In this document: one piece after another, positions 3,270 to 24,823 of the stretch
Numbering within the stretch: position 1 is the stretch's first letter
Layout of the letters: every line of letters begins with the position of its first letter
Assembly (NCBI GenBank): GCA_016841745.1
Contig: JAENYO010000002.1
Coordinates: 422,729 to 486,728, forward strand
From: Acetomicrobium hydrogeniformans
Lineage (GTDB): Bacteria > Synergistota > Synergistia > Synergistales > JAFGMB01
Reading direction: 5' to 3'
Length of the DNA: 64,000 nucleotides
Program-made: the position numbers and the translations under genes
Notes under the pieces: model-generated
Seen by the model: the letters and a program-made list of their open reading frames with translations, nothing else
What the model was told of the DNA's origin: nothing
Databases searched by the model: none

Positions 3270-3989
3270 TCATTTTTTGACCTTCTTGATGATTTTTTCC
3301 AACCCGTACATAAGATGGGCTTTCATTGTTTCTGCAGCTTCCCTGGGTTTGTGTTTTTTGACCAGGTCCACTATCTGGCGGTGTTCTACCATCATCTTAT
3401 CCCAGTCCTCATCCTTGAGGTCCAGATATTCGTGTCTTTGAGCATCTATCTCGCTCCTTATGGAACGGAGAAGTCTCAATGCAAGCTTGTTGCCTCCTAT
3501 CCTTGCTATGGTTTCATGAAAATCGGAATGGTATTTGAGGTTTTCTTCATTCTTGGGATGGATTTTTTCTTCACTATCGGTACTTCGGAGAAGGACTTCT
3601 TCCAGCTCCATTATGTCATCGGGGGTAGCTCTCTCGGCAGCCCAGTAGACATTCTGGCTTTCCAGCATGATACGTATCTGCATGAGTTCCACCCACGAAG
3701 AGTTATCGAAAAGGTAGTTCATAAGTTCAGTGTTGGTGATCTTTCTCAGAGCATCTTCGGAGATAAATGTTCCCTGGCCGGGTCTGGAATCTACAATACC
3801 AAAAACAGCAAGAGATTTAGTTGCTTCTCTTATGCTGTTTCTTCCGACTTCGAACTGCTCGGCCAGTTCCATTTCACTGGGTATCTTTTCTCCAGGAGTC
3901 CATGTTCCGTCTTTAACGGCTTCAAGCATCTGTTTCAGAACTTCCTGGTAGAGGGTTGTTCTGCTAGCTGGTTTAATCATTGAGATCAC
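3270..3989 (-). CDS. FadR/GntR-family transcriptional regulator 1
   Basis: wHTH PGEKIPSEMELAEQFEVGRNSIREA plus FCD domain (FH...EH..I); divergent from TRAP operon 1. Confidence 0.92.
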   Translation of the reverse strand: MISMIKPASRTTLYQEVLKQMLEAVKDGTWTPGEKIPSEMELAEQFEVGRNSIREATKSLAVFGIVDSRPGQGTFISEDALRKITNTELMNYLFDNSSWVELMQIRIMLESQNVYWAAERATPDDIMELEEVLLRSTDSEEKIHPKNEENLKYHSDFHETIARIGGNKLALRLLRSIRSEIDAQRHEYLDLKDEDWDKMMVEHRQIVDLVKKHKPREAAETMKAHLMYGLEKIIKKVKK

Positions 3990-4105
3990 CTTTTCTGACT
4001 TTTAACTAAGATAATATATAAAAAGATTAAAAAAAGAAAGCAAAAAATCTAACAGGTCAATATCTGCCGCCTCAAGAGAGTATACAGTATCCATTGTTTA
4101 TGTTG

Positions 4106-4134
4106 TTGACACTCTCTTCTGACTTGGATATTAT
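4106..4134 (+). promoter_or_regulatory. sigma70-type promoter for TRAP operon 1
   Basis: TTGACA-17 bp-TATTAT. Confidence 0.6.
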
Positions 4135-4299
4135 AACAGATAATCCAAACATCCTACATTAGGATTATTTGAATACAGTATATTCTTATCTCGGGCACAA
4201 AGTCTATCCTCAGGGACTTTTTGATTTTGATAAGACCCTTTTCAGCTAACCAGATAGCGGAAGATTTAAAATCCATGTAATTTAAAGGAGGGAGTAGTT

Positions 4300-4845
4300 T
4301 TGCTGGGAGATAGCAATGGTTCAGGCTTACTGGACAAGGTAGAGACAATCCAGCATGTTCTTTTGTTTTTCCTGATGATGCTGGTAGCCATTCTTGTTTT
4401 TATCCAGGTTCTTCTGAGATATGTTTTTAAAGCCCCGTTGATGGGGATAGAGGAAGTTCTTCTATTTCCTACGGTATGGCTTTATTTCATTGGAGGAATG
4501 AACGCTTCATGCGAGAGAAGCCAGATCGTCGCTCGTGTACTTGAGGTTTTCGTAAAAAAAGAAAAAACCATATTTTTTATCCGCACCATAGCATCAATTC
4601 TTGCTTTCGGGGTAGTTTTCTGGCTCACTTACTGGGGTTGGGATTTCTTCAAATATTCCATGAAAATGCAGAAAGAAAGCGCGACCCTTTACATCCCCCT
4701 TATTTATTCGGAGTCATGTGTTTTCATAGGTCTTGTGGTGATGTCCTTCTATACCTTCCTGGAGATCTTCCATAACCTGAGAATCTTTAAGTATGGCGGA
4801 GGTCATGAAGTGCTCGAAAAAGAACTGGAAGGAGGAGAGATCTAA
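4300..4845 (+). CDS. dctQ: TRAP transporter small permease
   Basis: Four TM segments, QVLLRYVF...EE motif; TTG start after ggagggag; adjacent to dctM and dctP. Confidence 0.9.
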   Translation: MLGDSNGSGLLDKVETIQHVLLFFLMMLVAILVFIQVLLRYVFKAPLMGIEEVLLFPTVWLYFIGGMNASCERSQIVARVLEVFVKKEKTIFFIRTIASILAFGVVFWLTYWGWDFFKYSMKMQKESATLYIPLIYSESCVFIGLVVMSFYTFLEIFHNLRIFKYGGGHEVLEKELEGGEI

Positions 4846-4846
4846 A

Positions 4847-6151
4847 ATGATGGGTACAGTCGCACTTGCACTGCTTGTTCTTGTTGTCCTTCTGACCCTT
4901 GGTGTTCCCCTTCCTTTCTGTTTCGGAGGAGGCCTCATGTTCATGAGTATTGTCGGCGGGGCTACAATGAAGGGCATGATGCTCTGGGGCCTGGGTCAGA
5001 TAACCAACCCGGTGCTGCTCTGCGTTCCTCTTTTTATCTTTGCCGGGACCCTTATGAGTGAGAGCGGTATAGCGAAATACCTTCTGGATTTTGTCAATGT
5101 TTTTGTGGGAAGTAAAAGAGGAGGCCTTGGTGTCGTTGCCTCCATCAGTTGTGCCATAATAGGAGCCATTTCAGGAAGCGGTTTTACAGGGGTAGCAGCT
5201 ACAGGACCGATCCTCATTCCCAGGATGGAACAGGAAGGTTATCCTCGTGGCTATGCAACGGCTCTTGTAACAAATTCCTCAATTCTTGGTCTTCTCATCC
5301 CTCCCAGTGTTGTCATGATAGTCTATGGCTGGGTTACTGAGACATCCATCCTGGCCTGTTTTCTTGCAACCGTGGGGCCAGGTATCCTTGTGACTTTCCT
5401 CTTTGCTGTTATCAACCTTGTATGGTCCAGGAAGTTTGACCTGACCATAGAGCCCAAACTGCCGATGAAGGAGAAACTGGTCCAGATAAGGACACGTACC
5501 TGGATGGCTCTTCCTGCCCTTATGATGCCCTTCATTATCCTTGGCGGGATTTACGGCGGAATAATGACTCCTACTGAAGCTGCTGCTGTAGCTGTTATAT
5601 ACTCGATCCCCGTTGGATTCTTTGTATATAAGGGACTTAATGCCAGGAACTTTTTCAAGATCGCCTGGAGTTCTGCCACTTCTGTCGGAGCCATCATGGT
5701 GATGATCTTTTTCTGCCTGATGCTAAGTCAGACCTTTGTAATGATGAGGGCACCACAGGCAATAGTCCAGCTTCTCTTCGGAGTGACCCAGAACAAGATA
5801 ATTCTTCTTATACTCATAAATCTTCTTCTTTTCTTTGTGGGTATGATCGTCAATGATATAACTGGAATTATCCTCGTAGCGCCTTTACTGTTGCCCCTGG
5901 TTCAGGCTATAGGAATAAGTCCCATACATTTTGCTGCGATCATGGGTGTAAACCTTGCCATGGGTGGTGTTACCCCGCCCTATGCGAGCATTCTGTATCT
6001 TGGAATGAGAATCGGGAACGTGGAATTCATGGATATTATAAAACCTGCCATGGTTCTCCTACTGCTGGGCTATGTTCCGGTAGTATTCCTGACATCTTTC
6101 TGGCCTGGACTCTCAATGTTCCTTCCCACTCTTCTCGGATTTGTCCATTAG
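4847..6151 (+). CDS. dctM: TRAP transporter large permease
   Basis: PLFIFAG.LM, GAISGS, LIPPS, TPTEAA, TPP motifs; start moved to ATG 4847 behind ggaggag. Confidence 0.93.
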   Translation: MMGTVALALLVLVVLLTLGVPLPFCFGGGLMFMSIVGGATMKGMMLWGLGQITNPVLLCVPLFIFAGTLMSESGIAKYLLDFVNVFVGSKRGGLGVVASISCAIIGAISGSGFTGVAATGPILIPRMEQEGYPRGYATALVTNSSILGLLIPPSVVMIVYGWVTETSILACFLATVGPGILVTFLFAVINLVWSRKFDLTIEPKLPMKEKLVQIRTRTWMALPALMMPFIILGGIYGGIMTPTEAAAVAVIYSIPVGFFVYKGLNARNFFKIAWSSATSVGAIMVMIFFCLMLSQTFVMMRAPQAIVQLLFGVTQNKIILLILINLLLFFVGMIVNDITGIILVAPLLLPLVQAIGISPIHFAAIMGVNLAMGGVTPPYASILYLGMRIGNVEFMDIIKPAMVLLLLGYVPVVFLTSFWPGLSMFLPTLLGFVH

Positions 6152-6311
6152 TTCCCAGCTCAGAGCAAGCTGAAATACCTGAAAGTAATGTGTAGCATCG
6201 GAGTTTCTGTTTTTAAGAAAATACCTTTTTGTTTAGAAAAGTTCATACAGTTCTTCTTTCAGGAGAACTATGAAAAAAAGATAGTACCAAATCAAAAGGA
6301 GGCGACAAGAA

Positions 6312-7319
6312 GTGAAAAAGTTTGTTCTGTTTCTGACCATCATTGCCCTGGTCTTCACCATGGGAGCCGCAGGCACCGCTGATGCAAAACCGAAGTATGT
6401 CTGGAAACTTTCCCATGTCCGTCCCCAGGGGACAACCATTGACAACGACCTTACCTGGTTCGCTGACAAGGTTATGAAAGATTCTGAAGGCAAGATCAAG
6501 ATCGATATTTTCGCCGCCAGCCAGCTTGGAGACTATACAGTGGTCCATGAGAGGATCAGTGTAGGAGCAGTAGATATGGCCTGCCAGCCCCCAGGAGTTG
6601 CCGCTGACAAAAGGATTCAGATCCTGAACCTCCCCTCACTTGTGACAAACTGGGAAGAGGCCAAGACTGTCTATGCTACAGGCAGCGTGCTTATGGATAC
6701 AGCGGCTGAACTTTTTGCCAAACAGGATATCAAGTATCTTGCTGCTTATCCCGTGTATTTCGGCGGTATAGCCCTCAAAGCAGATCCTGTTTCTCCCGGA
6801 GATCCCGATGTCAAGAAGGGCATAAAAGTCCGTGTTCCTCCGATGAAGTCCTTCCAGCTTCTCGCTAACGCTCAGGGTTACCAGGCTACCCCCATACCCT
6901 TTTCAGAGGCCTTTACAGCCATTCAGACTGGTATTGTCGACGGAGTCATAGGTTCCGGAGCAGAAGGTTATTATGCTAACTTCAGAGATGTCATCAAATA
7001 TTACATTCCCGCCAATACCCACTTTGAGCAGTGGTATCTGTACATGAACATGGAAACATTCAATAAACTCCCGGATGATCTCAAGAAGGTAGTCCTTGAT
7101 GTTGCTGCTGAGTTTGAAGCCCGCAGAATGGTGCAGGCAGAAAAAGATCAGTCTGCAAATGAAAAACGCCTTGAGGATTATGGTGTGAAGGTTGTAACCC
7201 TCAGCAACGAAGAGCTTGCTGCCATAGGTAAAAAGGTCCGAGCAGAAGTATGGCCCGAAATGGAGAAGGATCTTGGTGAAGAATGGGCCAAATCCATTCT
7301 CGACAAAGTAGTTCAATAG
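6312..7319 (+). CDS. dctP: TRAP substrate-binding protein
   Basis: Signal peptide; KVRVPP with the carboxylate-binding Arg; A.QTG.VDG motif. Confidence 0.92.
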   Translation: MKKFVLFLTIIALVFTMGAAGTADAKPKYVWKLSHVRPQGTTIDNDLTWFADKVMKDSEGKIKIDIFAASQLGDYTVVHERISVGAVDMACQPPGVAADKRIQILNLPSLVTNWEEAKTVYATGSVLMDTAAELFAKQDIKYLAAYPVYFGGIALKADPVSPGDPDVKKGIKVRVPPMKSFQLLANAQGYQATPIPFSEAFTAIQTGIVDGVIGSGAEGYYANFRDVIKYYIPANTHFEQWYLYMNMETFNKLPDDLKKVVLDVAAEFEARRMVQAEKDQSANEKRLEDYGVKVVTLSNEELAAIGKKVRAEVWPEMEKDLGEEWAKSILDKVVQ

Positions 7320-7334
7320 AGTCCTGAAATCCGA

Positions 7335-7364
7335 GAAGGGGAGCAGATCTGACTGCTCCCCTTC
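7335..7364 (+). terminator. Stem-loop after dctP (terminator or mRNA stabiliser)
   Basis: gaaggggagcag-6 nt-ctgctccccttc perfect 12-bp stem; weak U tract. Confidence 0.6.
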
Positions 7365-7515
7365 ATATATGGAAGGTAATGGTATTTTCTCAAAAATTTT
7401 TTCTTCGAAACAAATCTAGGATCTTCGGAAATTAGGATAAGAAAACTTTTATAATTCCAGTATTTTAATGAGAAGTACAAAATCGGGCCTTATTTATCGG
7501 AAGGAGGAAGTCAAA

Positions 7516-8601
7516 TTGAAATTTGCAGTTCTCGGAAGTGGTAATGGAGCCAGAGCCTGGTGTGCCCAGATAGCAGCCAAGGGTCATCCTGTAATGATGT
7601 GGGAACCCCTTGAGTCTACGGAAGATTATCTGAAACTGAGGGAAGAAAAGGAAATGTACCTTGAAGGTGATATTCAGATAGGCGGTAAACTTGCCGGAGT
7701 TACCATGGATATCGAAGAGGCCATGGATGGAGCCGATTTTCTTCTGGTGATTGTTCCTTCCTTTGCCCATGAACCTATTTTCAGGAAAATGATCCCCCAT
7801 CTCAAGGACGGACAGAATATTGTTGTAGTACCAGGAAACTTTGCCGGGTTCCGTTTAAGGAAAATGATGAAAGATGCAGGAGTAGTAAAGGATATCACCA
7901 TATCTGAAACTGCTTCCATGCCCTATGCCTGCAGGATAGATACCTATAATACAGTCATGATCTTCAAGAGAAAATTTGAGATGAAGATGGGAACTTCTCC
8001 CCAGTCCAAAAATGCAGAGATGTGCGGAGTCCTTAATGATGTTTTTGAGGGTTACGTGAAATATCTTCCTGCTGAAAACCTTCTCGAAGTAGACCTTGAT
8101 AATGTCAACTATATACTTCATCCATTCCCGGTCCTTTTCAACTACGGCGAAATAGAGAAGAACGGAAAGACCTATATGCACTATATGGATGGAATTACTC
8201 CGGTTCTTTCTGAAAAGATGATGAAGATGGATGAGGAGCGCATGGCCATAGGAGCAAAGCTTGGGCTCAAACTGCAGGATTGCCTTTCCCAACTCAAGAT
8301 GTATTATGGACATAATGATACTGAAACCATCTATGATTTTGTAAACAGCGATGATTCACCCTATAAAGATCTTGTTGGTCAGAATATCAAAGGCCGTTAC
8401 ATTACGGAGGATGTTCCCGGTGTTGTTGTTCCTGCCCTTCAGCTTGCAAAGAAAGCTGGTATGGAAGTTCCAATAGCCGAACTTGCAGTGAAAGTAGCTT
8501 CTTTCCTCCATGATACGGATTATGTAGAAAAAGGGACTAACCTTGAAAGCCTTGATATAGCGAACCTCTCTATCGAAGAGATCGTAAAAATGGTTTCGTA
8601 G
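7516..8601 (+). CDS. NAD/NADP octopine/nopaline (opine) dehydrogenase family, copy 1
   Basis: Rossmann GSGNGA, VPSFAH, PYACR, N.ILHP, RYITEDVP motifs; TTG start after aaggagg. Confidence 0.9.
   Translation: MKFAVLGSGNGARAWCAQIAAKGHPVMMWEPLESTEDYLKLREEKEMYLEGDIQIGGKLAGVTMDIEEAMDGADFLLVIVPSFAHEPIFRKMIPHLKDGQNIVVVPGNFAGFRLRKMMKDAGVVKDITISETASMPYACRIDTYNTVMIFKRKFEMKMGTSPQSKNAEMCGVLNDVFEGYVKYLPAENLLEVDLDNVNYILHPFPVLFNYGEIEKNGKTYMHYMDGITPVLSEKMMKMDEERMAIGAKLGLKLQDCLSQLKMYYGHNDTETIYDFVNSDDSPYKDLVGQNIKGRYITEDVPGVVVPALQLAKKAGMEVPIAELAVKVASFLHDTDYVEKGTNLESLDIANLSIEEIVKMVS
7519..8601 (+). repeat. 1,083-bp direct repeat, copy A (partner 22626-23708)
   Basis: Same protein from KFAVLG to the stop; overlapping antisense ORFs translate identically; spot-checked nucleotides are identical. 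Confidence 0.93.
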
Positions 8602-8656
8602 GAGTTATTCCAAGGCTACGTATCCAGAAATACAATAATTTTCGGACTCAATGTGT

Positions 8657-8709
8657 AATAAGGTCTCGCCTGGATTTATCGCTCAGATAAATCCAGGCGA
8701 GACCTTATT
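8657..8709. terminator. Perfect 24-bp inverted repeat / terminator after opine dehydrogenase copy 1
   Basis: aataaggtctcgcctggatttatc-gctca-gataaatccaggcgagaccttatt, followed by tcttgtt. Confidence 0.75.
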
Positions 8710-8833
8710 TCTTGTTCGTACAATGCGGCTTTGAATGTCTTTCAAAAACTGATTTTATTAAGAGTATCCAGGGGTAAGTATTTATGGATAATTATCCAGA
8801 GTTCAGTTATATTTGTTCAAGGAGGGTGATGAA

Positions 8834-9712
8834 ATGAAAAAACATTTTTTGAATCATCTTAGAATTATTACGGTTGCAGAAGACTCGGTTACTTATGGCA
8901 GTGACCTATGGGGGCAGCATGGAATATCATTTTTTCTGGAAGCTACAAATGAATCCAGCACACAGAACATTATTTTTGATGTTGGGCAGAATTACCAGGC
9001 TCTTAAACACAATATGGATGTCCTCGGAATAAACGTCCAGAAAATAGATGCCGTTGTTTTAAGTCATTCTCATCGGGATCATACAACCGGACTTGTTCCT
9101 CTTTTGCAAGATGTTGGAAAAACTAATGTTCCTATTATCGCGCATCCGGATATTTTTCATAGTAGCTTTATAATAGAGCCCTCTTTAAAATATGCGGGAA
9201 TGAGAGAAAGGAAAGATCTTATTGGTTTGAATGAGGGGAGGTTCATCCTGACCTCAGATCCGCTTTCCATATTGCCAGGACTCTCTACCAGTGGTGAGAT
9301 TCCAAGGATAACTGATTTTGAGGACCCAGGTCTTGCTCTTTATATGATTCGAAATGGAAAACTTGTTCAAGATAAAGTCTTTGACGATATGTCTCTTGTC
9401 GCGAACGTAAGAGGAAAAGGGATAATTATTCTTACAGGTTGCAGCCATGCAGGAGTGGTAAATATCGTAAAACAGGCTTTAACCCTCTTTCCAGGAGCTC
9501 CTTTAGAGGGAATTGTAGGAGGTTTTCATTTGGTAGATGCTTCAAGAGATAAGATCAACAAAGTTATTGATGCCCTGACGGAATTTCATCCACAATGGAT
9601 TTCAGCCGGGCACTGCACGGGTTTTGAGGCGCAAATGGCTTTGGTTGAAAAGTTTGGTTCCCGGTTCACTCCTTTACATTCGGGAAGCATTTTTGATATT
9701 CAAAGTCAATGA
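8834..9712 (+). CDS. MBL-fold metallo-hydrolase (dihydropteroate-synthase-like MBL subgroup)
   Basis: QHGIS, FDVG, SHSHRDH, TGCSHAG, GGFHL, GHCTG motifs. Confidence 0.85.
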   Translation: MKKHFLNHLRIITVAEDSVTYGSDLWGQHGISFFLEATNESSTQNIIFDVGQNYQALKHNMDVLGINVQKIDAVVLSHSHRDHTTGLVPLLQDVGKTNVPIIAHPDIFHSSFIIEPSLKYAGMRERKDLIGLNEGRFILTSDPLSILPGLSTSGEIPRITDFEDPGLALYMIRNGKLVQDKVFDDMSLVANVRGKGIIILTGCSHAGVVNIVKQALTLFPGAPLEGIVGGFHLVDASRDKINKVIDALTEFHPQWISAGHCTGFEAQMALVEKFGSRFTPLHSGSIFDIQSQ

Positions 9713-9810
9713 CCAGACAAATATTTTAAGGTGGTAATGGAAAGGTCTATTCGAATTGTCCATAGAAATATGATCATGAAAAACAACTTGTCACTTCTCT
9801 CTTGAGAAAA

Positions 9811-9844
9811 AAGAAGGAAGGAAACAAACATTTCCCTCCTTCTT
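9811..9844. terminator. Probable bidirectional terminator between convergent genes
   Basis: aagaaggaaggaaa...tttccctccttctt with A-tract on the left. Confidence 0.55.
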
Positions 9845-9921
9845 GAATGTGCTTACCTTAATGTTCCCTTTGTGTTGGGTCGAAATTGGAAAACTATCAT
9901 TACAAACCGTGTTTGGCCTTT

Positions 9922-10980
9922 TTACATTCTAATAAATTCCTGGATATTTGGATGGTTAAATATCATTGTCTCCTGAAGCGGAAGTTTTTTTCCTGCACCA
10001 GCTGCTATTGCTCGAGTATACATATCGTAAGCTAACTTAACGTCTATGTAAGAAAGTCCTACCGCGTTAAAGTAAGTTCGTTCCGAGCTTGATTCACGGC
10101 CTGCTTTTTCCCCAGAGACTAGATCTGCAAGATTTCCATGGATGTCATCATCTGTCAGTTCTCCAGCCTGATACATGTCTGCCAGAGTCTGATCACGGTG
10201 TTTAACAGCTTCCCAGTCATCACATACGATCTTTTCGCATTGTTTTGCAACGGCATATTCATCTTCCCACCCGCCAATGTGGCTGTAAAATGCGCCAGGT
10301 TTCATCCACGAAGCTTTCAGCAGAGGTCCATAAGCGGTTGTTGCAGTTACAAGAATATCCGCTCCATCCATGGCTTTTTTTGAATCTGTATCAGCTGAAA
10401 GGAAGGTCATGTCCGGGAATATGGGACTCATCTCCTGGATAAAACGCTCCTCTTCTTTTGCATATTTAGCCGCAACCCTGCATTCTTTCAGTCCTGGAAA
10501 AACCGTTTTCATTCCAACAAGATGCATTTTAGATTGCTCTCCAGCTCCGATGAAACCAATACTCTCCGAATCCTTTCTGGCAAGATATTTGGCTGCAGTT
10601 GCTCCAACAGAGGCCACTCTCATATTGGATGCAAGTGTTCCATCCATTACCGCAATAGGAAAACCTTTTTCTATTTCAGACAGGACCAGGAGAGCGGAAA
10701 GATTCTGAACGCCATATTTTTGTGGATTTGGAGGAAACACGGAAACCCATTTCATGCCGCAGATCTTCTGAGGGAGCAGGGTAGCAGGTAGGCAGTTTAT
10801 CCTTTCCTGGGTTTGATCGTTGAATACCTGAACTATTTTGTCAGGGAATAGTATTTCATTATTTGTAAACGCCAGTAGCCCTTCTTCAGTTGATCGGATG
10901 GCCATCTTCATGTCGAAACATCCTGCATTAAGCAGGTCTTCCTGAGATAAAAAAGTAAGTTGAATTTCACTCGTTGTCAT
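9922..10980 (-). CDS. Ornithine cyclodeaminase/mu-crystallin family imine reductase/dehydrogenase
   Basis: GMKWVS.FP.N, MDGTLASNMR, GAGEQ, VGLSYID motifs; ATG 10980 behind aaggaagggg. Confidence 0.88.
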   Translation of the reverse strand: MTTSEIQLTFLSQEDLLNAGCFDMKMAIRSTEEGLLAFTNNEILFPDKIVQVFNDQTQERINCLPATLLPQKICGMKWVSVFPPNPQKYGVQNLSALLVLSEIEKGFPIAVMDGTLASNMRVASVGATAAKYLARKDSESIGFIGAGEQSKMHLVGMKTVFPGLKECRVAAKYAKEEERFIQEMSPIFPDMTFLSADTDSKKAMDGADILVTATTAYGPLLKASWMKPGAFYSHIGGWEDEYAVAKQCEKIVCDDWEAVKHRDQTLADMYQAGELTDDDIHGNLADLVSGEKAGRESSSERTYFNAVGLSYIDVKLAYDMYTRAIAAGAGKKLPLQETMIFNHPNIQEFIRM

Positions 10981-11073
10981 TTTTTCCCCTTCCTTTTTAA
11001 ACATTAAATTATTGCACTAATCAGATTTTAAGAGGGATATTTCCATGGGGGAATTAACGTGGTTTGATTGTTT

Positions 11074-11115
11074 GATGACCCAATGGAGAAGGTAAAACCT
11101 CTCCACTGGGTCATC
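11074..11115 (-). terminator. Stem-loop downstream of dctP2 (probably a stabiliser; no U tract)
   Basis: gatgacccaatggag...ctccactgggtcatc. Confidence 0.5.
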
Positions 11116-16827: not shown

Positions 16828-17038
16828 GATTTTCCTCCTTATAAAAGTTTATCTTTCCATACTGACGTTTTAAAGTGTATAAATAATACATAATGTAGTA
16901 TTGTATGTTTGTCTGACATTTAGTGGTATAATTCAGATTAAAGTAGTTTGAAGATTATGTCAAGTTGGAAACATGTTGTTTTTTTGAGTGAACAAGTCTT
17001 GTTATAAATTTTGTGATGGAGCAATGGAGGTACGTACA

Positions 17039-17791: not shown

Positions 17792-17852
17792 GTATCTTTG
17801 AATTTTATTCAGGATTCAGTGAAGGCTATTACGGTTAAGGAAGGATATTCAA

Positions 17853-18554
17853 TTGTATAGATCAGATATGTTGAAAAAAAAACTGATTGCCAATGGGGCC
17901 TCACTTGTCGGATTTGCAGATCTGGGGAGTATGGATGATCGACCCTTTAATAATTACCCTTTTGCAATTTCCATTGCAGTGGCTCTTGATCCAGAAATAG
18001 TGCTTCAGATAGCCGAAGGACCTACAGTTCAATACTGTGGGGAATATGAAAGGGTTAATCTGGTTCTCAATAAAATTGCAGATTATACAGTTGAACTTAT
18101 TCATTCCCTGGGTTATACGGCAAGTACCCTGTCCGCAACAGATCGAAAGTATGTTGAAGGAGCATTCCTGACATCGATCTTTTCGCATAAAAAGGCCGCG
18201 ACGATTTCAGGCTTAGGCTGGATAGGGAAAAATGACCTTTTAATAACAAAGGAGTTTGGTTCTGCTGTAAGATTTAACACCGTTTTTACAAATATGCCTC
18301 TTTTTACGGGAAAGCCTATTCAGCGGTCCTTTTGTGGAAATTGCCATGCCTGTGCTAAGGCATGTCCTGCTAATGCACCTTTTGGTGTGTTGTGGAATAC
18401 AGGTATTTCCCGTGAGGAATTGCTTGATATTCACACCTGTTATTCACAGGCAAAAGAACTTTCAGAAGAAATTGGGGTAGAGCCGATAATATGCGGAATC
18501 TGTATAGCTGCCTGTCCCTGGACAAAAAAATATATAAAAACAGCCTGTAATTGA
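17853..18554 (+). CDS. QueG/epoxyqueuosine-reductase-like 4Fe-4S protein
   Basis: GA.LVGFA, SHKKAA..SGLGWIGKN, CGNCHACAKACP and CGICIAACP. Confidence 0.8.
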   Translation: MYRSDMLKKKLIANGASLVGFADLGSMDDRPFNNYPFAISIAVALDPEIVLQIAEGPTVQYCGEYERVNLVLNKIADYTVELIHSLGYTASTLSATDRKYVEGAFLTSIFSHKKAATISGLGWIGKNDLLITKEFGSAVRFNTVFTNMPLFTGKPIQRSFCGNCHACAKACPANAPFGVLWNTGISREELLDIHTCYSQAKELSEEIGVEPIICGICIAACPWTKKYIKTACN

Positions 18555-18694
18555 TACAACCATAATGTAAAGCGGAAGAACGAATCTACTAATGGCTAAG
18601 GGATGTCCGTCTCCTTTAATAATAATCATTAACATATTACCGTATTCTCCTTGCCAGTAAGAGAGTAACAGGTAGAGCATTGTTGATAGGGGGT

Positions 18695-19288
18695 TCATTT
18701 CGTAATAGTCATCATTAGTGCAGTACACGTTTTTTCACCCTTGGCTCGTCCTCCATGGGGGTATGAGCCATCAACAAAGAGGCAGTCTCCCGGTTTAAGT
18801 TCGTAGTGTTTTTCAAGAAAGTGAAATTCGAGAATACCTTCGAGGACGTATATGAATTCTTCAACATCTTCTGTGAAGCGTGGAGATGCTTTATACTTCG
18901 TTGGGTAGTAGGTCAGAATAAATGTATTTAAGTTTTTATTGGGCCATTTGCTGCTAAGAGAGTGAAAGTCATAACCATGGAGGCCAACTTTACTTTCTTT
19001 TTCATGATATTCGCTGTTCTTTACAAGTAGAAATCTTGGTTCATTTTCTTCTTTAAATAAACTTCCGATCTCTACATCCAGGTTTTTGGCTATTTTCGAA
19101 TATGTGGAAACTGGCGAACTAACTTTGCCATTCTCGATCTTGGACAAAAGGGCTTTTGACAACCCTGTTTTTTGGGCTAGATCTTCAAGGGTCAGGTCGT
19201 TTCTTTGTCTTATTTCACGAATTTTTCTGCCGATGGATGTTTCAATATCCAGGCCTTCGATGTTGATTTCTTTATCATTTTCAGGCAT
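18695..19288 (-). CDS. XRE-family HTH plus cupin regulator (PuuR/SutR-like)
   Basis: IG.KIREIR...LAQKTGLSKALLSKIENG; cupin EEFIYVLEG...PGD; divergent from the reductase operon. Confidence 0.9.
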   Translation of the reverse strand: MPENDKEINIEGLDIETSIGRKIREIRQRNDLTLEDLAQKTGLSKALLSKIENGKVSSPVSTYSKIAKNLDVEIGSLFKEENEPRFLLVKNSEYHEKESKVGLHGYDFHSLSSKWPNKNLNTFILTYYPTKYKASPRFTEDVEEFIYVLEGILEFHFLEKHYELKPGDCLFVDGSYPHGGRAKGEKTCTALMMTITK

Positions 19289-19494
19289 TTTAAATCCCTC
19301 CTGATTAACGAGTAGTTATTTGTTTTCAACGAACTATTGATAGAAATAAAATTCAATAAAAGGATTTCAAAGAGCAAGTCTAAACCATATGTAATGTCTA
19401 CGGCTCTTTGAATGAAAAACAGCTAATTATACTTGTTAAGCCACTTGTAATTATATTGACTTTTTCGAGTAATTGTTGTTTACTCTCATTATAC

Positions 19495-19515
19495 TTGTTT
19501 CGCGAGAGGAAATAA
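19495..19515. promoter_or_regulatory. Candidate XRE operator upstream of the grd-like operon
   Basis: Imperfect palindrome TTGTTTC-N7-GAAATAA downstream of a TTGACT -35-like hexamer at 19456. Confidence 0.35.
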
Positions 19516-19564
19516 AGGTCGAGATAAACTTTGCAAGTTCCCCAAAATATTGGAGGTGAAAGGG

Positions 19565-20857
19565 ATGGATATGTTTACTTTACGAAGGATTAAATTAAGT
19601 GATGTGGCATTTGGTAAGCAGACTTGCATCAAAAAAGGAGTTTTATTTATTAACAAAGACGAAATGATCCAAAATCTTTTGGATGACAACCATTTAAAGA
19701 ATGTTGATATACAACTTGCCAGACCTGGTGAAAGCAAAAGAATTATTCCCGTCAAAGATGTAATCGAACCAAGGGTAAAACTTGAAGAGGGAGTTGATAC
19801 TTTTCCTGGAATCTTTTCTGATGCGGATTATGTATCCGGTAAAGGAACGACCATTGTTCTTGAAGGCGTAGGAGTGGTTACTTCCGGAAAGATAATCAAT
19901 TTTCAGGAAGGGCTTATTGATATGTCCGGTCCTGGTTCAGAATATAGCGTTTTTTCCAGCAACCTTAATGTAGTCCTGGTTATTGACCCGGTAGATGGCC
20001 TTGGTAAACATGAACATGAGAGAGCAGTGAGGATCGCAGGTTTTAAGGCTGCGCATTACCTCGGGATGGCAGGTAAAACCGCCTCTTTTGATCAGGAGGT
20101 TAGGTATCCCGTGAACGAAATTCCGGAATTGGTGACCAGATATCCTGATCTGCCGAAGATAGTGTATGTCTGTCAGGTAATTGCACAGGGCTTGCTTCAT
20201 GATAATTATATTTATGGATTAAATGCTCAGGGATGTCTTCCCATGCTTGTTTATCCGACCGAACTTATGGATGGTGCTGTTTTAAGTGGTAACTGTGCTG
20301 CCCCCTGTCATAAACATACGACTTATCATCATCAGAATAATCCAATAATAGAGGATCTGTTAAGTGAACACGGGAAAACCCTTAATTTGATGGGAGTAAT
20401 TATTGCTCCTGTCAGGACTGCGTTGCACGAGAAGGAAAGAATAGGGAATCAGGTTCTCAAGCTAGCAGAAATGGTTGGAGCAGAGGGAGCCATAGTGTCC
20501 GAAGATGGAGGGGGAAACCCTGAGGCAGATCTTATGATACTAACCCGTCTTTTTGAAAAAAATGGAATAAAAACAGTTCTCGTGACAGACGAATATGCCG
20601 GGTCGGATGGTGCTTCACCAGGGCTTGCAGATGTTACTCCGGAAGCAGATGCAGTTGTAACTAACGGTAATGGTAATCATAAAGTGGTGTTGCCTCCAAT
20701 GAGCGAAACCATAGGGCATCTGGAGTGTGTTGATATCATAACCGGAGGGCACACGGGTAGCCTGAAGCCAGATGGTTCAATCGAAATGGAGATAGCTGGA
20801 GTAATGGGTTCGACCAATGAACTTGGGATGGAAAATCTGAAGACGGTAGCTATCTGA
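19565..20857 (+). CDS. grdE: Glycine/sarcosine/betaine reductase component B proprotein (GrdE/GrdG-like)
   Basis: ARPGES.RIIPVKDVIEPR, QEG.IDMSGPG, DGA.LSGNC, QNNP.I..L, GNP..D, DEYAG.DG motifs; ggaggtg RBS. Symbol marks the family; substrate is unproven. Confidence 0.88.
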   Translation: MDMFTLRRIKLSDVAFGKQTCIKKGVLFINKDEMIQNLLDDNHLKNVDIQLARPGESKRIIPVKDVIEPRVKLEEGVDTFPGIFSDADYVSGKGTTIVLEGVGVVTSGKIINFQEGLIDMSGPGSEYSVFSSNLNVVLVIDPVDGLGKHEHERAVRIAGFKAAHYLGMAGKTASFDQEVRYPVNEIPELVTRYPDLPKIVYVCQVIAQGLLHDNYIYGLNAQGCLPMLVYPTELMDGAVLSGNCAAPCHKHTTYHHQNNPIIEDLLSEHGKTLNLMGVIIAPVRTALHEKERIGNQVLKLAEMVGAEGAIVSEDGGGNPEADLMILTRLFEKNGIKTVLVTDEYAGSDGASPGLADVTPEADAVVTNGNGNHKVVLPPMSETIGHLECVDIITGGHTGSLKPDGSIEMEIAGVMGSTNELGMENLKTVAI

Positions 20858-20877
20858 TCGGCAAGGGGGAAATTAAA

Positions 20878-22182
20878 ATGAAAAAAATTACTGTTGTCCA
20901 TTACATAAATCAGTTCTTTGGCCAGTTGGGCGGAGAAGAAAAAGCGGATATCCAACCTCTTATCAAGGATGGTCCTGTCGGGATAGGAGCCCAGCTTGAA
21001 AAGGTTTCTGAAGGTCGTTATAGCATAGTGAAAACGATCATTTGTGGTGATAATTATGCTGCTGAAAACCTTGAGGAAGCGGGTCTGAAGGTATTAGACT
21101 GGGTTAAAGAAGTATCTCCTGATCTATTCATAGCTGGACCTGCTTTTGGTGCAGGCAGATATGGTACATCATGCGGAATGTTATGTAAGTTAATCCAGAA
21201 GGAGCTTGGAATTCCTGTTATTACAGCCATGCATCCTGTAAACCCTGGAGTTGATCTTGCCAAAAAAGATATCTACATAATCGAAGCTGGAGATTCTGCT
21301 CGGGATATGAGAAGTGTTATTCCCAAAATGGTTCATTTTGCGGACAAACTCCTGAATCATGAACCTATAGGGTTACCTGAAGAGGAAGGATATCTTCCGA
21401 GAGGAATCAGAATAAATGTTCGTGAGGAAAAAAGGGGTTCCCGGAGAGCTGTTGATATGCTTCTTAAAAAAGTCAGGGGAGAATCTTTCGTAACTGAACT
21501 ACCCATGCCTGTATTTGACCATGTTCCTCCGGCGCCACCAGTTAAGGATCTATCAACGGCTTTAATCGCAATTGGTACTGAAGGTGGGGTAGTCCCTGAG
21601 GGAAATCCTGATCATATTGAAGCTCACAATGCATCGAAATGGTGCAAATACTTTATTGGCGATCTTGATAATCTCCAGACTGTTAAGTATGAAGTTGCTC
21701 ATGGAGGTTATGATCCGGTAGCTGCCAACGACGATCCTAACAGGGTTTTGCCTCTTGATGCAGCCAGGGCCTGTGAAAAGGAAGGTGCTTTCCGGGAACT
21801 ATACGGATATTATCCTGTGACGGTAGGAAATGTTACAGCAGTCAATTCCGCTGAACGATATGGAAGGGAAATTGGAGAAATGCTTATTGAGGCAGGAGTT
21901 GAAGGCATTATCCTTACATCCACCTGAGGAACTGGAACCCGTTGCGGTGCAACGCTTGCAAGAGAAATTGAAAGGGTTGGGCTTCCCGCCGTTCTGATCA
22001 CGGCGGTTCCCCCCATAGCATTGACAGTTGGAGCTAATCGTATTGTTCGTGGAGTAGCTATTCCTCATCCAACAGGTGCTCCAGGAGAAGATCCGGGAGA
22101 GGAATTTAATATTCGAAAAAACCTGATTCTTAAGGCCTTGAGTGCTTTATCCAGTGATATAACAGAGCAGACAGTGTTTTAA
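20878..22182 (+). CDS. grdB: Glycine/sarcosine/betaine reductase selenoprotein B (434 aa; Sec at TGA 21925-21927)
   Basis: HYINQFFGQLGGEEKA, GPAF.AGRYG, HGGYD; frame reads ILTST-U-GTGTRCGATLAREIE...ALTVGANRIV...IPHP to TAA 22180-22182. Symbol marks the family; substrate is unproven. Confidence 0.93.
21925..21954 (+). promoter_or_regulatory. Bacterial SECIS-like hairpin
   Basis: UGA, then a CGTTGC-GGT-GCAACG stem-loop whose loop begins with G 18 nt after the UGA. Confidence 0.75.
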
Positions 22183-22212
22183 CCATATTTGAGGCTGGTG
22201 GAGGTAGGGGAT

Positions 22213-22560
22213 ATGTTGATAATTTCAAATAATCCCATGGTCTGGGAACAATACCCTGATACTCTCAGGGTTGAAGGTACTTCTCTTGAAGTCATCGAAG
22301 AAGCAAGAGATAGAGTTCAAAGGGGAATGAGACTAATTGCACATCCTTTATCTGGAAATGCAAGGCTTGTTAGAAATCCGTTTCGCTCGGTCGTTCTCCA
22401 TGATCTGGTTTCAGAGGTCAATTCAAGAGACCTGTTCTTTGTTGAAGATGCATATTACAGGCTGAAGCGGGTCGATTGGGGGACTGCTCCAGATTCAACC
22501 CTTGATGATTACCAGATCATTGATTTAGACCTTTTAATATCGACTCTTGAACCCTGCTAA
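22213..22560 (+). CDS. grdX: GrdX family protein
   Basis: IISNNP.V, RD.V..G..L..HPLSG...NP.RSV, D.QIID.DL. Confidence 0.88.
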   Translation: MLIISNNPMVWEQYPDTLRVEGTSLEVIEEARDRVQRGMRLIAHPLSGNARLVRNPFRSVVLHDLVSEVNSRDLFFVEDAYYRLKRVDWGTAPDSTLDDYQIIDLDLLISTLEPC

Positions 22561-22610
22561 GAGCCACAGCTTCAGTAAACTTAAATTTATATGAAGGGTA
22601 GGTTGGTAAT

Positions 22611-23708
22611 ATGTCTCAAGAACACAAATTTGCAGTTCTCGGAAGTGGTAATGGAGCCAGAGCCTGGTGTGCCCAGATAGCAGCCAAGGGTCATCCTGTA
22701 ATGATGTGGGAACCCCTTGAGTCTACGGAAGATTATCTGAAACTGAGGGAAGAAAAGGAAATGTACCTTGAAGGTGATATTCAGATAGGCGGTAAACTTG
22801 CCGGAGTTACCATGGATATCGAAGAGGCCATGGATGGAGCCGATTTTCTTCTGGTGATTGTTCCTTCCTTTGCCCATGAACCTATTTTCAGGAAAATGAT
22901 CCCCCATCTCAAGGACGGACAGAATATTGTTGTAGTACCAGGAAACTTTGCCGGGTTCCGTTTAAGGAAAATGATGAAAGATGCAGGAGTAGTAAAGGAT
23001 ATCACCATATCTGAAACTGCTTCCATGCCCTATGCCTGCAGGATAGATACCTATAATACAGTCATGATCTTCAAGAGAAAATTTGAGATGAAGATGGGAA
23101 CTTCTCCCCAGTCCAAAAATGCAGAGATGTGCGGAGTCCTTAATGATGTTTTTGAGGGTTACGTGAAATATCTTCCTGCTGAAAACCTTCTCGAAGTAGA
23201 CCTTGATAATGTCAACTATATACTTCATCCATTCCCGGTCCTTTTCAACTACGGCGAAATAGAGAAGAACGGAAAGACCTATATGCACTATATGGATGGA
23301 ATTACTCCGGTTCTTTCTGAAAAGATGATGAAGATGGATGAGGAGCGCATGGCCATAGGAGCAAAGCTTGGGCTCAAACTGCAGGATTGCCTTTCCCAAC
23401 TCAAGATGTATTATGGACATAATGATACTGAAACCATCTATGATTTTGTAAACAGCGATGATTCACCCTATAAAGATCTTGTTGGTCAGAATATCAAAGG
23501 CCGTTACATTACGGAGGATGTTCCCGGTGTTGTTGTTCCTGCCCTTCAGCTTGCAAAGAAAGCTGGTATGGAAGTTCCAATAGCCGAACTTGCAGTGAAA
23601 GTAGCTTCTTTCCTCCATGATACGGATTATGTAGAAAAAGGGACTAACCTTGAAAGCCTTGATATAGCGAACCTCTCTATCGAAGAGATCGTAAAAATGG
23701 TTTCGTAG
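22611..23708 (+). CDS. Opine dehydrogenase family, copy 2 (in the grd-like operon)
   Basis: Identical to copy 1 except for the N-terminal MSQEH; starts 50 bp after grdX. Confidence 0.9.
   Translation: MSQEHKFAVLGSGNGARAWCAQIAAKGHPVMMWEPLESTEDYLKLREEKEMYLEGDIQIGGKLAGVTMDIEEAMDGADFLLVIVPSFAHEPIFRKMIPHLKDGQNIVVVPGNFAGFRLRKMMKDAGVVKDITISETASMPYACRIDTYNTVMIFKRKFEMKMGTSPQSKNAEMCGVLNDVFEGYVKYLPAENLLEVDLDNVNYILHPFPVLFNYGEIEKNGKTYMHYMDGITPVLSEKMMKMDEERMAIGAKLGLKLQDCLSQLKMYYGHNDTETIYDFVNSDDSPYKDLVGQNIKGRYITEDVPGVVVPALQLAKKAGMEVPIAELAVKVASFLHDTDYVEKGTNLESLDIANLSIEEIVKMVS
22626..23708 (+). repeat. 1,083-bp direct repeat, copy B
   Basis: Offset 15,107 bp from copy A; identity ends exactly at the TAG. 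Confidence 0.93.
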
Positions 23709-23737
23709 ATATCTTTAGATTGTAGAACTTAAATTCT

Positions 23738-23789
23738 ATAAGGATACCTCCAAATACCTGGTCGAAAAGGTGCTTGGAGGTATCCTTAT
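23738..23789 (+). terminator. Rho-independent terminator ending the grd-odh operon
   Basis: ataaggatacctccaa...ttggaggtatccttat followed by tttgtt. Confidence 0.75.
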
Positions 23790-24025
23790 TTTGTTATCAC
23801 CAACGGGAGAATTGGAAAAATGAATCAGAATTCTGATTTTGCCGATCATAGAATTTCAGAGGAGATATTGTTATTGAATAAAATGTGACCTTAAATACCT
23901 TTCTGGTAATGGGCTGAAATTGGCGCAATTGAAGATGCATTTTAAGGAAATTAGAATTCAGTCAGGGCGTATACCAAGGAGAAGTTTAGATGTCCTACCC
24001 CCTGAAGGGAAATGGTGATGTTAAT

Positions 24026-24823
24026 TTACATGTGCAGCAGGGTGTCTTCCAGATGAATTGCAGATCTGGAAGAGCCCATGATATCTTCCATATCCTGAAG
24101 CAGATGTTTAACCATTGCTTCTCTTGCTTTTTTAACATTCCTGGACCTTATGTGCTTGAGAATAGCCCGATGCTCCTCCATCATTTTGTTCCAGTGCTGT
24201 TCCGGAAGTACAAGATAATTATGTCTGTGAGCCTCAAGTTCTGCACGAATTGAGCGAATAAGTCTTATCATTATCCCGTTACCGGCGATCTCTGCAAGCC
24301 TGTCATGGAATTTCGTGCGTGTCTGGAGAATTGTTTCTTGTAGTTTATCTATATTCTGAATATCATTATTGATGATATTCTCCAGGCTATCCAGATCTTC
24401 GAGGGTAGCATTTTCTGTCACCCATTCCACCATCTGGGTTTCCATAAGGACTCTGAGTTCCATCTTTTCTACAATAGAAACATCTTCAGTCAAAGAATGA
24501 ACCAGTTCATTATTCGCGATCCTTCGAATGGCATCTGGAGCGATTACGGTTCCATGACCCGGCCTGGATTCGATAATCTTATAAACAGATAAAGCTTTCA
24601 TTGCTTCCCTTATGCTGCTTCTGCTTATCTGGAACTGCTCGGCAAGGGCCAGTTCGCCGTCCATCTTGCTTCCCGGTTGCCATGATCCATTCTTTATAGC
24701 AGATATGATCTGGGTCATAACATTTTCATAAAGGGTGGAGCGGCTCGCGGGTTTGAACAAAGGGAATTCCTCCAGGAAAGTTTCATGTACTCTGTCTCTC
24801 TTTTGGTCTATTTCCTGAAGCAT
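24026..24823 (-). CDS. FadR/GntR-family regulator 3
   Basis: KPASRSTLY...ELALAEQFQISRSSIREA plus FCD; close paralog of 3270-3989; true start uncertain. Confidence 0.88.
   Translation of the reverse strand: MLQEIDQKRDRVHETFLEEFPLFKPASRSTLYENVMTQIISAIKNGSWQPGSKMDGELALAEQFQISRSSIREAMKALSVYKIIESRPGHGTVIAPDAIRRIANNELVHSLTEDVSIVEKMELRVLMETQMVEWVTENATLEDLDSLENIINNDIQNIDKLQETILQTRTKFHDRLAEIAGNGIMIRLIRSIRAELEAHRHNYLVLPEQHWNKMMEEHRAILKHIRSRNVKKAREAMVKHLLQDMEDIMGSSRSAIHLEDTLLHM

Follow-up and report, generated by a model that had tools for sequence, protein, structure and literature searches.

An apparently distinct protein B clade of the glycine reductase family beside TRAP importers and opine-type dehydrogenases in Acetomicrobium hydrogeniformans

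A locus for a reductase of the glycine reductase family was analysed in a stretch of 64,000 nucleotides (nt) from Acetomicrobium hydrogeniformans (Synergistota; contig JAENYO010000002.1), referred to below as the window, which is one 64-kb part of a genome of 3.04 Mb in 15 contigs. In this locus the genes grdE, grdB and grdX are followed by a gene for an opine dehydrogenase (ODH), and they are accompanied by two TRAP importers, two enzymes of the ornithine cyclodeaminase (OCD)/mu-crystallin family and a serine-dehydratase-like enzyme (Table 1). Judged by its sequence, the selenocysteine (Sec)-containing GrdB almost certainly belongs to a distinct and separate clade. This clade carries its own active-site signature and keeps a TRAP-rich gene neighbourhood in other genomes. 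It may represent a plug-in protein B whose substrate is an imino acid of the N-carboxymethyl or opine type, taken up from outside, with the ODH as an oxidative branch; this is the preferred reading, and its prospects are put at slightly below even.

Genes were called from an open reading frame (ORF) listing together with Pfam and NCBIfam profile scans of the window. For comparison, 73 loci around GrdE relatives were collected from species-representative genomes, and 75 GrdB sequences were extracted. Neighbourhoods were counted over up to 10 kb on each side of a locus, and 26 clade loci besides the window were set against 47 loci of other clades. As the 73 loci were chosen via GrdE, this sample is biased; the unbiased survey was that of 151 Synergistota genomes, which were searched with three separate queries (GrdE, ODH and DctP). 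The genomes surveyed are kin, and counts across them are not independent. Trees were built with a quick setting and carry support only from the Shimodaira-Hasegawa-like approximate likelihood ratio test (SH-aLRT).

The protein B clade and its active site

Both GrdE and GrdB passed their family models (Table 1). The grdB frame reads through a single in-frame TGA at position 21925 (residue 350) and continues for 84 more in-frame codons, and this TGA was kept in all 75 aligned GrdB rows. In the window protein the active-site motif is STUGTGTRCGA, which was found in 27 of 27 clade rows (the window and the 26 loci) and in which UxxGxxC replaces UxxCxxC. In the other 48 rows the residue three past the Sec was Cys (24 rows, including the copies on contigs C7 and C3 of this genome) or Asp (24 rows).

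The window GrdB and the 26 others formed a single clade with an SH-aLRT of 100 in the 75-row tree. It comprises 24 Synergistota rows and three metagenome-assembled genomes of Desulfobacterota or Thermodesulfobacteriota type. Two grdG/grdF pairs from the megaplasmid of Peptoclostridium (Eubacterium) acidaminophilum and a grdE-grdA-grdB set from Acetoanaerobium noterae were added to the tree. Both GrdF copies and the A. noterae GrdB have UxxCxxC and grouped with the C7 and C3 proteins, and the 27-row clade was unchanged. The placement of protein B among characterised reductases, which an earlier note on this DNA had named as a check, thus sets it apart from the genome's own canonical glycine reductase and from the characterised sarcosine reductase (SH-aLRT 100).

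Further residues mark the clade at sites that are otherwise conserved, namely D314 in GrdE (Glu in 96% of the others) and A381 in GrdB (Ser in 98%), besides E235, G353 and A376 in GrdB. In total there are five such positions in GrdE and seven in GrdB. Together with UxxGxxC they provide a simple annotation marker for the clade, whose genes are currently annotated as glycine or sarcosine reductase.

All substrate-specific NCBIfam equivalog scores of the window GrdB lay under their cut-offs (glycine 541 vs 602.2, sarcosine 557.6 vs 800, betaine 496.2 vs 775), and GrdE scored 477.8 against 780 on the sarcosine GrdG model. The protein is also the most divergent of the three GrdB in this genome. A proline-type reductase was rejected (PrdB 78 vs 300; GrdE on PrdA 66 vs 700; PrdB not found in the genome), as was a fluoroacetate reductase (GrdE 148 on the FarE model vs 675). 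Ten GrdB representatives of other clades were scored in the same way; none reached the sarcosine or betaine cut-off and one passed the glycine cut-off. The TRAP-linked Lachnospiraceae GrdB of locus L044 passes the glycine equivalog (622.9 vs 602.2). Many GrdB clades therefore seem, by profile score, to lack a substrate assignment at equivalog level. A side observation concerns Anaerovorax odorimutans and Hominibacterium faecale (L061-L071), in which at least three GrdE/GrdB pairs lie within about 60 kb, with Cys or Asp three past the Sec; none of their scored GrdB reaches a substrate-specific NCBIfam cut-off, which points to further protein B clades without an assignment.

The processing site Asn243-Cys244 and Cys248 of GrdE were invariant in a 20-sequence alignment, and self-cleavage is predicted. 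According to the available text of PMC10838667, GrdI and FarE lack those cysteines and cannot form the pyruvoyl group. Because GrdE keeps the Asn-Cys site needed for this group, its substrate should be an amine, primary or secondary. A search for solved-structure relatives of GrdE found none.

Among the 151 Synergistota genomes, a GrdE of this clade (63-72% identity) was present in 17, including this one, and the next best match was at most 52% identical; some GrdE was found in 113 of the 151 (about three quarters). The closest named relatives of the window GrdE are from Aminobacterium (70-72% identity). By their record titles, many clade members come from rumen, oral or digester habitats.

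Conserved neighbours, partner genes and the island

GrdX was found at all 26 clade loci and at 3 of the 47 other-clade loci. DctM (at least 40% identity) was present at 19 and 7 of these, respectively, DctP at 18 and 6, an OCD-family gene at 14 and 2, and the dehydratase at 9 and 1. ODH orthologues (at least 50% identity) occurred at 9 clade loci and at 0 of the 47 others, and ODH paralogues (about 30% identity) at 11 and 9; an ODH-family gene of any kind stood at 17 of the 26. GrdA was found at 2 clade loci and 9 others. The association of the clade grd genes with TRAP, ODH, OCD and dehydratase genes exceeds chance.

Some TRAP-type component was present at 24 of the 26 clade loci, the exceptions being L019 and the 4.8-kb contig L077. 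This tally includes TAXI or fused DctQM forms (L018, L023), more distant DctM proteins (L016, L074) and one locus where the contig end cuts DctP (L027). A closer look at L025 and L074 yielded no further clue. Minimal clade loci (L020, L024, L025, L031 and L035) hold only GntR, TRAP and GrdEBX. Two arrangements recur. One runs GntR, DctQ1, DctM1, DctP1, XRE (on the opposite strand), GrdE, GrdB, GrdX, with or without ODH; the other runs DctQ2, DctM2, a further ODH (ODH'), dehydratase, OCD, OCD, DctP2, GrdE, GrdB, GrdX, all co-directional except the regulator. The window holds both, the second being inverted and without the ODH'. Relatives of the XRE-cupin regulator (45-56% identity) lie upstream of grdE at 11 of 26 clade loci.

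In a tree built on the GrdE-centred loci, the Grd-linked DctP proteins formed one group (SH-aLRT 99) apart from the genome's other DctP paralogues. Within it, DctP1 falls in a subclade of 12 rows (SH-aLRT 95), whose sister group contains DctP2; the two proteins share about 55% identity. Across the other 150 genomes, 27 DctP genes are at least 45% identical to DctP1. Nine adjoin only an ODH orthologue, five adjoin both an ODH and a clade GrdE, and seven adjoin only a clade GrdE; in three the clade GrdE is 7-11 kb off, and three have neither. That one DctP family stands beside the ODH, the reductase or both suggests a ligand class accepted by both enzymes. The substrate imported by TRAP for this reductase is probably something other than glycine, sarcosine and betaine.

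The earlier note had described a plug-in module without GrdA, and the location of the partner genes bears this out. No grdA, grdC, grdD, trx or sel genes lie within the window; they were located on other contigs. The genome has three GrdB and only two GrdA, both at the other grd loci. The operon on contig C7 runs grdX-trx-grdE-grdA-grdB-grdC-grdD, with equivalog-level GrdC and GrdD and a GrdB whose 669 bits exceed the glycine cut-off (602), and contig C3 carries grdE-grdB-grdA (GrdB 584 bits); each of these loci lies beside a Na+ symporter. The gene for tRNA-Sec is on C15, selA, selB and selD are on C7, TrxB is on C13, and a thioredoxin-like gene is part of the C7 grd operon. In 16 of 16 other clade-carrying genomes, GrdA (with its TGA) and GrdC-beta exceeded their cut-offs away from the clade locus, which agrees with a plug-in module and is not a strong test, as GrdE is common in the Synergistota sampled and the genomes are related. 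Clade protein B would, with good probability, use GrdA, GrdC and GrdD encoded elsewhere.

Several further features were noted at these loci. On C3 (123278-129952; L091), grdE-grdB-grdA is followed by a gene for a 532-amino-acid (aa) protein and then by the Na+ symporter; the similarity of this protein to prolyl-tRNA synthetase (ProRS; 148 bits vs 558) is confined to the C-terminal half, which makes it an unusual ProRS-like paralogue next to a reductase. The selD gene (C7:161485-162414) has an in-frame TGA of its own, as does a thioredoxin-like ORF (C10:72651-72923), and there may be further selenoproteins in the genome. The clade loci of Desulfobacterota type (L023, 13068-18253; L018, 11479-13479) are more self-contained, with GrdE and GrdB followed by a DUF5940 (GrdC-like) protein, GrdA, a TAXI binding protein and a fused DctQM; in L023 an insertion sequence (DDE_3) lies just upstream.

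Nine RNA runs were listed and four were examined as contigs, three of which are metatranscriptomes of marine sediment from two studies. Contigs from these RNA libraries match the island at 95-99%. Two of them, of 3170 and 2902 nt, span 20557-23726 and 20849-23750, respectively, and together cover the end of grdE, grdB, grdX and the whole ODH gene; a contig from the second study runs across the junction of grdB and grdX. A simple scan of the plus strand after position 21646 found no terminator-like sites, and hence none between grdB, grdX and odh. The direct continuation of the grd operon into the dehydrogenase gene, as the earlier note had it, is likely to be one of co-transcription: contigs bridge grdB, grdX and odh, with the reservation that contigs are not transcripts. 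The depth of the RNA contigs is near zero right after odh (bins 23848-24900), which was not used as evidence, as contig depth cannot rank genes. Separately, record 2 of run X1, from a relative of about 98% identity, carries 1123 additional letters between OCD2 and the dehydratase, against 184 in the window (13215-13400); these may represent a gene that the window's strain lacks.

The two ODH genes are identical over 360 of 360 aa and over 1083 nt at 100% (7519-8601 vs 22626-23708). This identity starts at the second codon of ODHa and stops exactly at the stop codon, and the flanking DNA is unrelated; such coding-only identity would fit gene conversion between two ODH paralogues. When the window was compared by blastn with a complete genome of the same genus (G126), positions 400-8609 aligned at 94% and were followed directly by 24026-42280 at 91%. 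Nothing of the island (8602-23708) aligned with G126 except the single ODH gene, which in G126 is followed by a 306-aa ORF and then by GntR3. G126 is without a GrdE of the window clade (best GrdE match 49%), and its DctP1 counterpart is 99% identical. Positions 8602-23708 are therefore an indel flanked by perfect direct repeats, which arose either by gain in the window's lineage or by loss from G126 when ODHa and ODHb recombined. The perfect 1083-nt repeats illustrate a route by which a genus can acquire or lose such a module. The grdX-ODH junction is not an assembly chimera of this genome, because RNA-library contigs of relatives at about 98% identity carry it. One further RNA-library contig (run X7) matches exactly from the repeat start at 22626, and the 1244 letters ahead of this point are unlike grdX; its junction may be that of DctP1 and ODH.

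Substrate and function of the locus

ODHb exceeded the cut-offs of both its domains (PF02317, 131.7 vs 30 bits; PF01210, 42.3 vs 23.1). Its best solved relative is the structure 1bg6 of N-(1-D-carboxyethyl)-L-norvaline dehydrogenase (CENDH; 3.2e-46, residues 4-357), with the HPxP and RYxxEDV stretches aligned. The HP and Arg/Asp stretches are catalytic in opine dehydrogenases, and the protein appears from these matches to be a genuine opine-type enzyme. OCD1 fell under every NCBIfam equivalog cut-off (archaeal alanine dehydrogenase 194 vs 409; SbnB 186 vs 327), and all 13 NCBIfam models listed for each of the two OCD proteins scored below cut-off. Among solved structures, OCD2 comes closest to 1omo, an archaeal alanine dehydrogenase (2.7e-46), and to 6t3e, a Pyr2C reductase (1.6e-43). 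As far as the available text of PMC4141209 goes, the OCD family includes alanine and N-methylalanine dehydrogenase activities, Pyr2C reductases, SbnB (a diaminopropionate synthase) and the tauropine and strombine dehydrogenases of sponges, and dehydratase genes often lie beside such OCD-family genes. The earlier note's statement that both families include opine-type enzymes accordingly stands, with 1bg6 for the ODH and the strombine and tauropine dehydrogenases in that part of PMC4141209 for the OCD.

The dehydratase exceeded the cut-off of the alpha model (TIGR00718, 262.9 vs 243.2) and fell below those of the beta model (TIGR00719, 135.1 vs 161.2) and the single-chain model (216.2 vs 345.1). 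For DctP the solved relatives were too distant (best 2.7e-22 and 2e-21), and an assignment of the ligand from these structures was dropped. Taken by family, the island would hold four imine or secondary-amine enzymes and one selenoenzyme that cleaves C-N bonds.

In the preferred reading of a plug-in protein B, a TRAP importer of one DctP family would bring in an anionic imino acid with an N-CH2-COO- group, akin to strombine or iminodiacetate. Its secondary amine would be bound by the pyruvoyl group that GrdE acquires on processing, and Sec350 of GrdB would take the carboxymethyl group and free the amino acid. The carboxymethyl group would then be passed to GrdA, GrdC and GrdD from the canonical operon on the other contig, yielding acetyl-phosphate with electrons from thioredoxin. 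The co-transcribed CENDH-like ODH would form an oxidative branch, converting the same or related imported opines to amino acid, keto acid and NADH, so that one substrate class would be both oxidised and reduced, as a Stickland pair in a single molecule. The two OCD enzymes and the dehydratase would turn the released Ala- or Ser-like amino acids into pyruvate. The candidate substrates are N-carboxymethyl amino acids because an opine dehydrogenase needs an N-(carboxyalkyl) amino acid and protein B needs an amine on a -CH2-COO- group. A broader version is rather doubtful: the UxxGxxC clade would be an opine (N-carboxymethyl amino acid) reductase with a fifth substrate class, the ODH would oxidise the same class so that one compound serves as Stickland donor and acceptor, and the repeat-flanked cassette would travel among Synergistota, Desulfobacterota-type bacteria and Bacillota.

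A number of points weigh against the preferred reading. ODH orthologues (at least 52% identity) occur in 20 of the 151 genomes, ten of which lack the reductase clade. Among the 17 clade carriers, the orthologous ODH directly follows grdEBX in only six (G000, G062, G043, G109, G131 and G143), lies elsewhere or on another contig in four, and was not found at E values of 1e-60 or better in seven. Two of these seven (G150 and G136) have no PF02317 gene at all; that the reductase does not need the dehydrogenase counts, for its part, in favour of the preferred reading. The synteny of grd and odh put forward in the earlier note thus stands as a conserved neighbourhood of TRAP and imino-acid dehydrogenase genes, and its link to the opine dehydrogenase is confined to a part of the clade. 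Here the grd-odh junction is one end of the repeat-flanked indel. The genome is also rich in paralogues, with about 29 DctM, 24 DctP, 17 M20 peptidases, 11 OCD and 8 Octopine_DH in about 3 Mb, and this abundance of DctM, OCD and ODH copies means that adjacency in a single genome means little. RNA libraries may hold DNA, and a contig across several genes is not a single transcript. A hairpin 15 nt past the TGA was no more stable than shuffled sequence (z 0.43), so that the Sec reading rests on frame conservation and the sel genes. Of the characterised P. acidaminophilum reductases the tree covers the sarcosine GrdF, and the separation from the protein B for betaine (GrdH/GrdI) and for glycine draws on NCBIfam cut-offs and stand-ins. 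Rumen, oral and digester habitats are not known to be rich in N-carboxymethyl amino acids. The role given to the dehydratase and OCD enzymes is the weakest link, and all functional readings of the clade draw on genes and gene context.

Two other accounts keep a working reductase and are each considered unlikely. The locus might feed a glycine-type protein B, with the TRAP systems importing opines that the ODH and OCD enzymes oxidise to keto acid and glycine (or sarcosine-like amines). The ODH gene directly after grdX and on the same RNA-library contigs, the pyruvoyl site of GrdE kept as in glycine-type enzymes, and the L044 GrdB that is TRAP-linked and passes the glycine equivalog would all fit this account, as would the strombine dehydrogenases reported for the OCD family in the available text of PMC4141209. 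Against it, this genome is already equipped with a canonical glycine reductase and with a further GrdE/GrdB/GrdA set, both beside a Na+ symporter; on the glycine model the window GrdB has the lowest score of the three (541 vs the cut-off of 602), and it has its own active-site signature. The ODH orthologue is moreover missing in seven of 17 carriers and any PF02317 gene in two, and the minimal loci hold only GntR, TRAP and GrdEBX. In the other account the substrate is a TRAP-imported, non-opine amino-carboxylate (N6-carboxymethyl-lysine, guanidinoacetate, another N-alkyl glycine or a cyclic imino acid) and the ODH, OCD and dehydratase genes are a separate module for amino or imino acids that often accompanies it. 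In its favour, the invariable partners are only TRAP, GrdX and a regulator; at nine loci the ODH orthologue stands with the same DctP family and without the clade; and ODH-OCD pairs recur elsewhere in this genome (C8:220823-224000, with an OCD 76% identical to OCD1, and C14:274797-277900). None of the ten other GrdB representatives reached the sarcosine or betaine cut-off, and a Synergistota isolate is said to degrade carboxymethyl-lysine. This account sits less easily with the single DctP family beside ODH, Grd or both, for which one ligand class for both enzymes is the simplest explanation. There is also no PrdB-type signature (PrdB score 78 vs 300), and no lysine-fermentation genes were seen in the island.

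Opine dehydrogenases are reversible and TRAP systems carry 2-oxo acids, and a carrier cycle can be drawn from this and from the co-location of odh with grdEBX: the ODH would condense imported glyoxylate with an amino acid, and the reductase would remove the carboxymethyl group as acetyl-phosphate and regenerate the amino acid, for a net reduction of glyoxylate with ATP. Such a cycle is considered very unlikely. Loci with only ODH and TRAP (9 of the 27 DctP genes, and all of G126) would make an unusable opine, transamination to glycine followed by canonical glycine reductase does the same job, and nothing points to glyoxylate. It is more improbable still that the locus is a recent recombination product whose genes act independently or are idle. 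The perfect 1083-nt flanking repeats, the absence of the island from the same-genus genome and the very numerous TRAP, OCD and ODH paralogues can be cited for this, against which stand the recurrence of the same gene sets in one orientation across many genera and three phyla, the intact state of all frames and the RNA-library contigs from two studies that cover the genes. The preferred reading, an imported N-carboxymethyl or opine-type imino acid as substrate of a plug-in protein B, accommodates the shared DctP family and the bridging contigs, and is retained with the reservations given above.

Gene inventory and known systems

The features of the locus are listed in Table 1. The gene order of the earlier note, grdE-grdB(Sec)-grdX into an octopine-family dehydrogenase, was borne out (19550-23708, in-frame TGA at 21925), and the Pfam and NCBIfam scans recovered its two OCD enzymes, two TRAP importers, serine dehydratase and four regulators, so that its inventory is correct. 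Besides the fused serine-dehydratase-like gene, the locus holds a second ODH copy, a metallo-beta-lactamase (MBL)-fold gene and a 4Fe-4S gene, and these latter three were absent from that account. Both TRAP sets (DctQMP) are complete (4300-7319; 11155-12159 with 14995-16827), and the four regulators are three of GntR/FCD type and one XRE-cupin protein.

Table 1. Features of the locus and its surroundings, in window positions
Feature	Position	Strand	Basis or remark
Two M20 peptidases	584-3066	-	Profile scan
GntR/FCD regulator 1	3270-3989	-	Pfam GntR and FCD; divergent from TRAP set 1; collinear in G126
TRAP importer 1	DctQ1 4300-4845; DctM1 4793-6151; DctP1 6312-7319	+	Pfam DctQ, DctM, DctP
ODHa (opine dehydrogenase copy a)	7468-8601	+	PF02317, 131.6 bits; likely start TTG 7516 behind GGAGG
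Direct repeat copy 1	7519-8601		1083 nt, 100% identical to 22626-23708; ODHa codon 2 to stop
15.1-kb island	8602-23708		One repeat copy and unique DNA; missing from G126
MBL-fold hydrolase	8813-9712	+	Pfam Lactamase_B_2
OCD/mu-crystallin enzyme 1 (OCD1)	9922-11004	-	PF02423, 177 bits
DctP2 (binding protein of TRAP importer 2)	11155-12159	-	PF03480
OCD/mu-crystallin enzyme 2 (OCD2)	12220-13215	-	PF02423, 178 bits
Fused beta/alpha iron-sulfur serine-dehydratase-like enzyme	13321-14910	-	SDH_alpha and SDH_beta
DctM2 and DctQ2 (TRAP importer 2)	14995-16293; 16309-16827	-	Pfam
GntR/FCD regulator 2	16988-17791	+	Pfam
4Fe-4S protein (233 aa)	17853-18554	+	Fer4_16; distantly like QueG and reductive dehalogenases
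XRE-HTH/cupin regulator	18695-19288	-	Pfam HTH_3 and Cupin_2; divergent from grdE
GrdE proprotein	19550-20857	+	PF09338, 576 bits (cut-off 22); likely start 19565 (430 aa)
GrdB selenoprotein	20878-22182	+	TIGR01918, 570 bits (cut-off 65); Sec TGA 21925-21927 (U350); TAA stop 22180
GrdX	22189-22560	+	NF038093, 86 bits (cut-off 40)
ODHb (opine dehydrogenase copy b)	22611-23708	+	PF02317; 50 nt downstream of grdX
Direct repeat copy 2	22626-23708		Identical to 7519-8601
GntR/FCD regulator 3	24026-24823	-	Pfam; outside the island, collinear with G126
Mo/W cofactor riboswitch	44528-44645	+	RF01055, 61.8 bits; just 5' of the PBP_like_2 gene
PBP_like_2 gene	44727-45560		Probably part of a molybdate- or tungstate-type ABC importer

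The MBL-fold gene is not a conserved neighbour, as a relative (37% identity) was found at 2 of 26 clade loci. The 4Fe-4S protein scored 66 against 200 on TIGR00276 and 67 against 160 on TIGR02486, and among the 26 clade loci a relative (53%) was found only at L014.

If the preferred reading is true, the clade would bring a new electron acceptor into anaerobic amino-acid fermentation. It would also be the first anaerobic route for opine-type compounds, which include end products of invertebrate anaerobiosis in sediments and possibly glycation-derived carboxymethylated amino acids; our literature searches turned up no anaerobic pathway for such compounds. The established substrates of the selenoprotein reductases in this family are glycine, sarcosine, betaine and D-proline. 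Searches for literature joining glycine reductase with opine dehydrogenase found none, those on Stickland and opine returned only items that look irrelevant from title and abstract, and those on glycine reductase and TRAP returned only two papers on fluoroacetate, whose cluster maps list SLC6, PutP, OpuD and MFS transporters. Fluoroacetate has recently been added to the known substrates, as described in the available part of PMC10838667, and the GrdB tree figure or supplements of that paper may show the present clade unnamed.

One close known system is the sarcosine reductase GrdG/GrdF of P. acidaminophilum, in which the same two genes are preceded by GrdX, with Sec in STUG and the Asn-Cys site. 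Its substrate is a secondary amine and N-substituted glycine, which is the chemistry proposed for the window. In contrast, the window GrdE is only 47% identical to GrdG, the window GrdB has UxxGxxC where GrdF has UxxCxxC, lies in a different part of the tree and scores 558 against 800. Sarcosine clusters carry a BCCT transporter and sigma-54 regulators, whereas the window has TRAP and GntR. The canonical glycine reductase of this genome (the C7 operon) shares the family, Sec position and GrdE processing site with the window proteins, and is the presumed source of GrdA, GrdC, GrdD and thioredoxin. The window, however, has no grdA, grdC, grdD or trx; its GrdB scores 541 where that of C7 scores 669, its GrdE is 49% identical, and its transporter is of the TRAP type instead of a Na+ symporter.

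CENDH of Arthrobacter, the best solved relative of the dehydrogenase, shares with it a Rossmann fold with GxGxxG at the N terminus, belongs to the catabolic opine dehydrogenases of bacteria and acts on secondary-amine dicarboxylates; Arthrobacter is, however, an aerobic actinobacterium, and its enzyme has no link to a reductase. Octopine and nopaline catabolism in Agrobacterium (occ/noc) likewise brings together opine import, opine cleavage and an enzyme of the OCD family, but uses ABC importers and flavin-dependent opine oxidases, is aerobic and has no selenoprotein. The D-proline reductase PrdA/PrdB of Stickland fermenters, fed by ornithine cyclodeaminase, also couples reductive C-N cleavage by pyruvoyl and Sec with supply by an OCD enzyme. 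The window differs from it in the Prd scores given above, in the absence of a PrdB from the genome and in the presence of GrdX.

Within the phylum itself, the fluoroacetate reductase FarB/FarE (farACEB) of Cloacibacillus and Pyramidobacter provides a precedent, in that an additional protein B pair with a novel substrate delivers to the common reductase (available parts of PMC10838667 and PMC12366334). The window GrdE reaches only 148 against the FarE cut-off of 675 and keeps the processing cysteines that FarE is said to lack in the available text of PMC10838667. The far operon includes an antiporter and a radical-SAM enzyme, whereas the window has TRAP importers and the ODH. Measured against these systems, the kind of system described here was already known, and what is new is a clearly marked clade of protein B whose gene context is both unusual and conserved.

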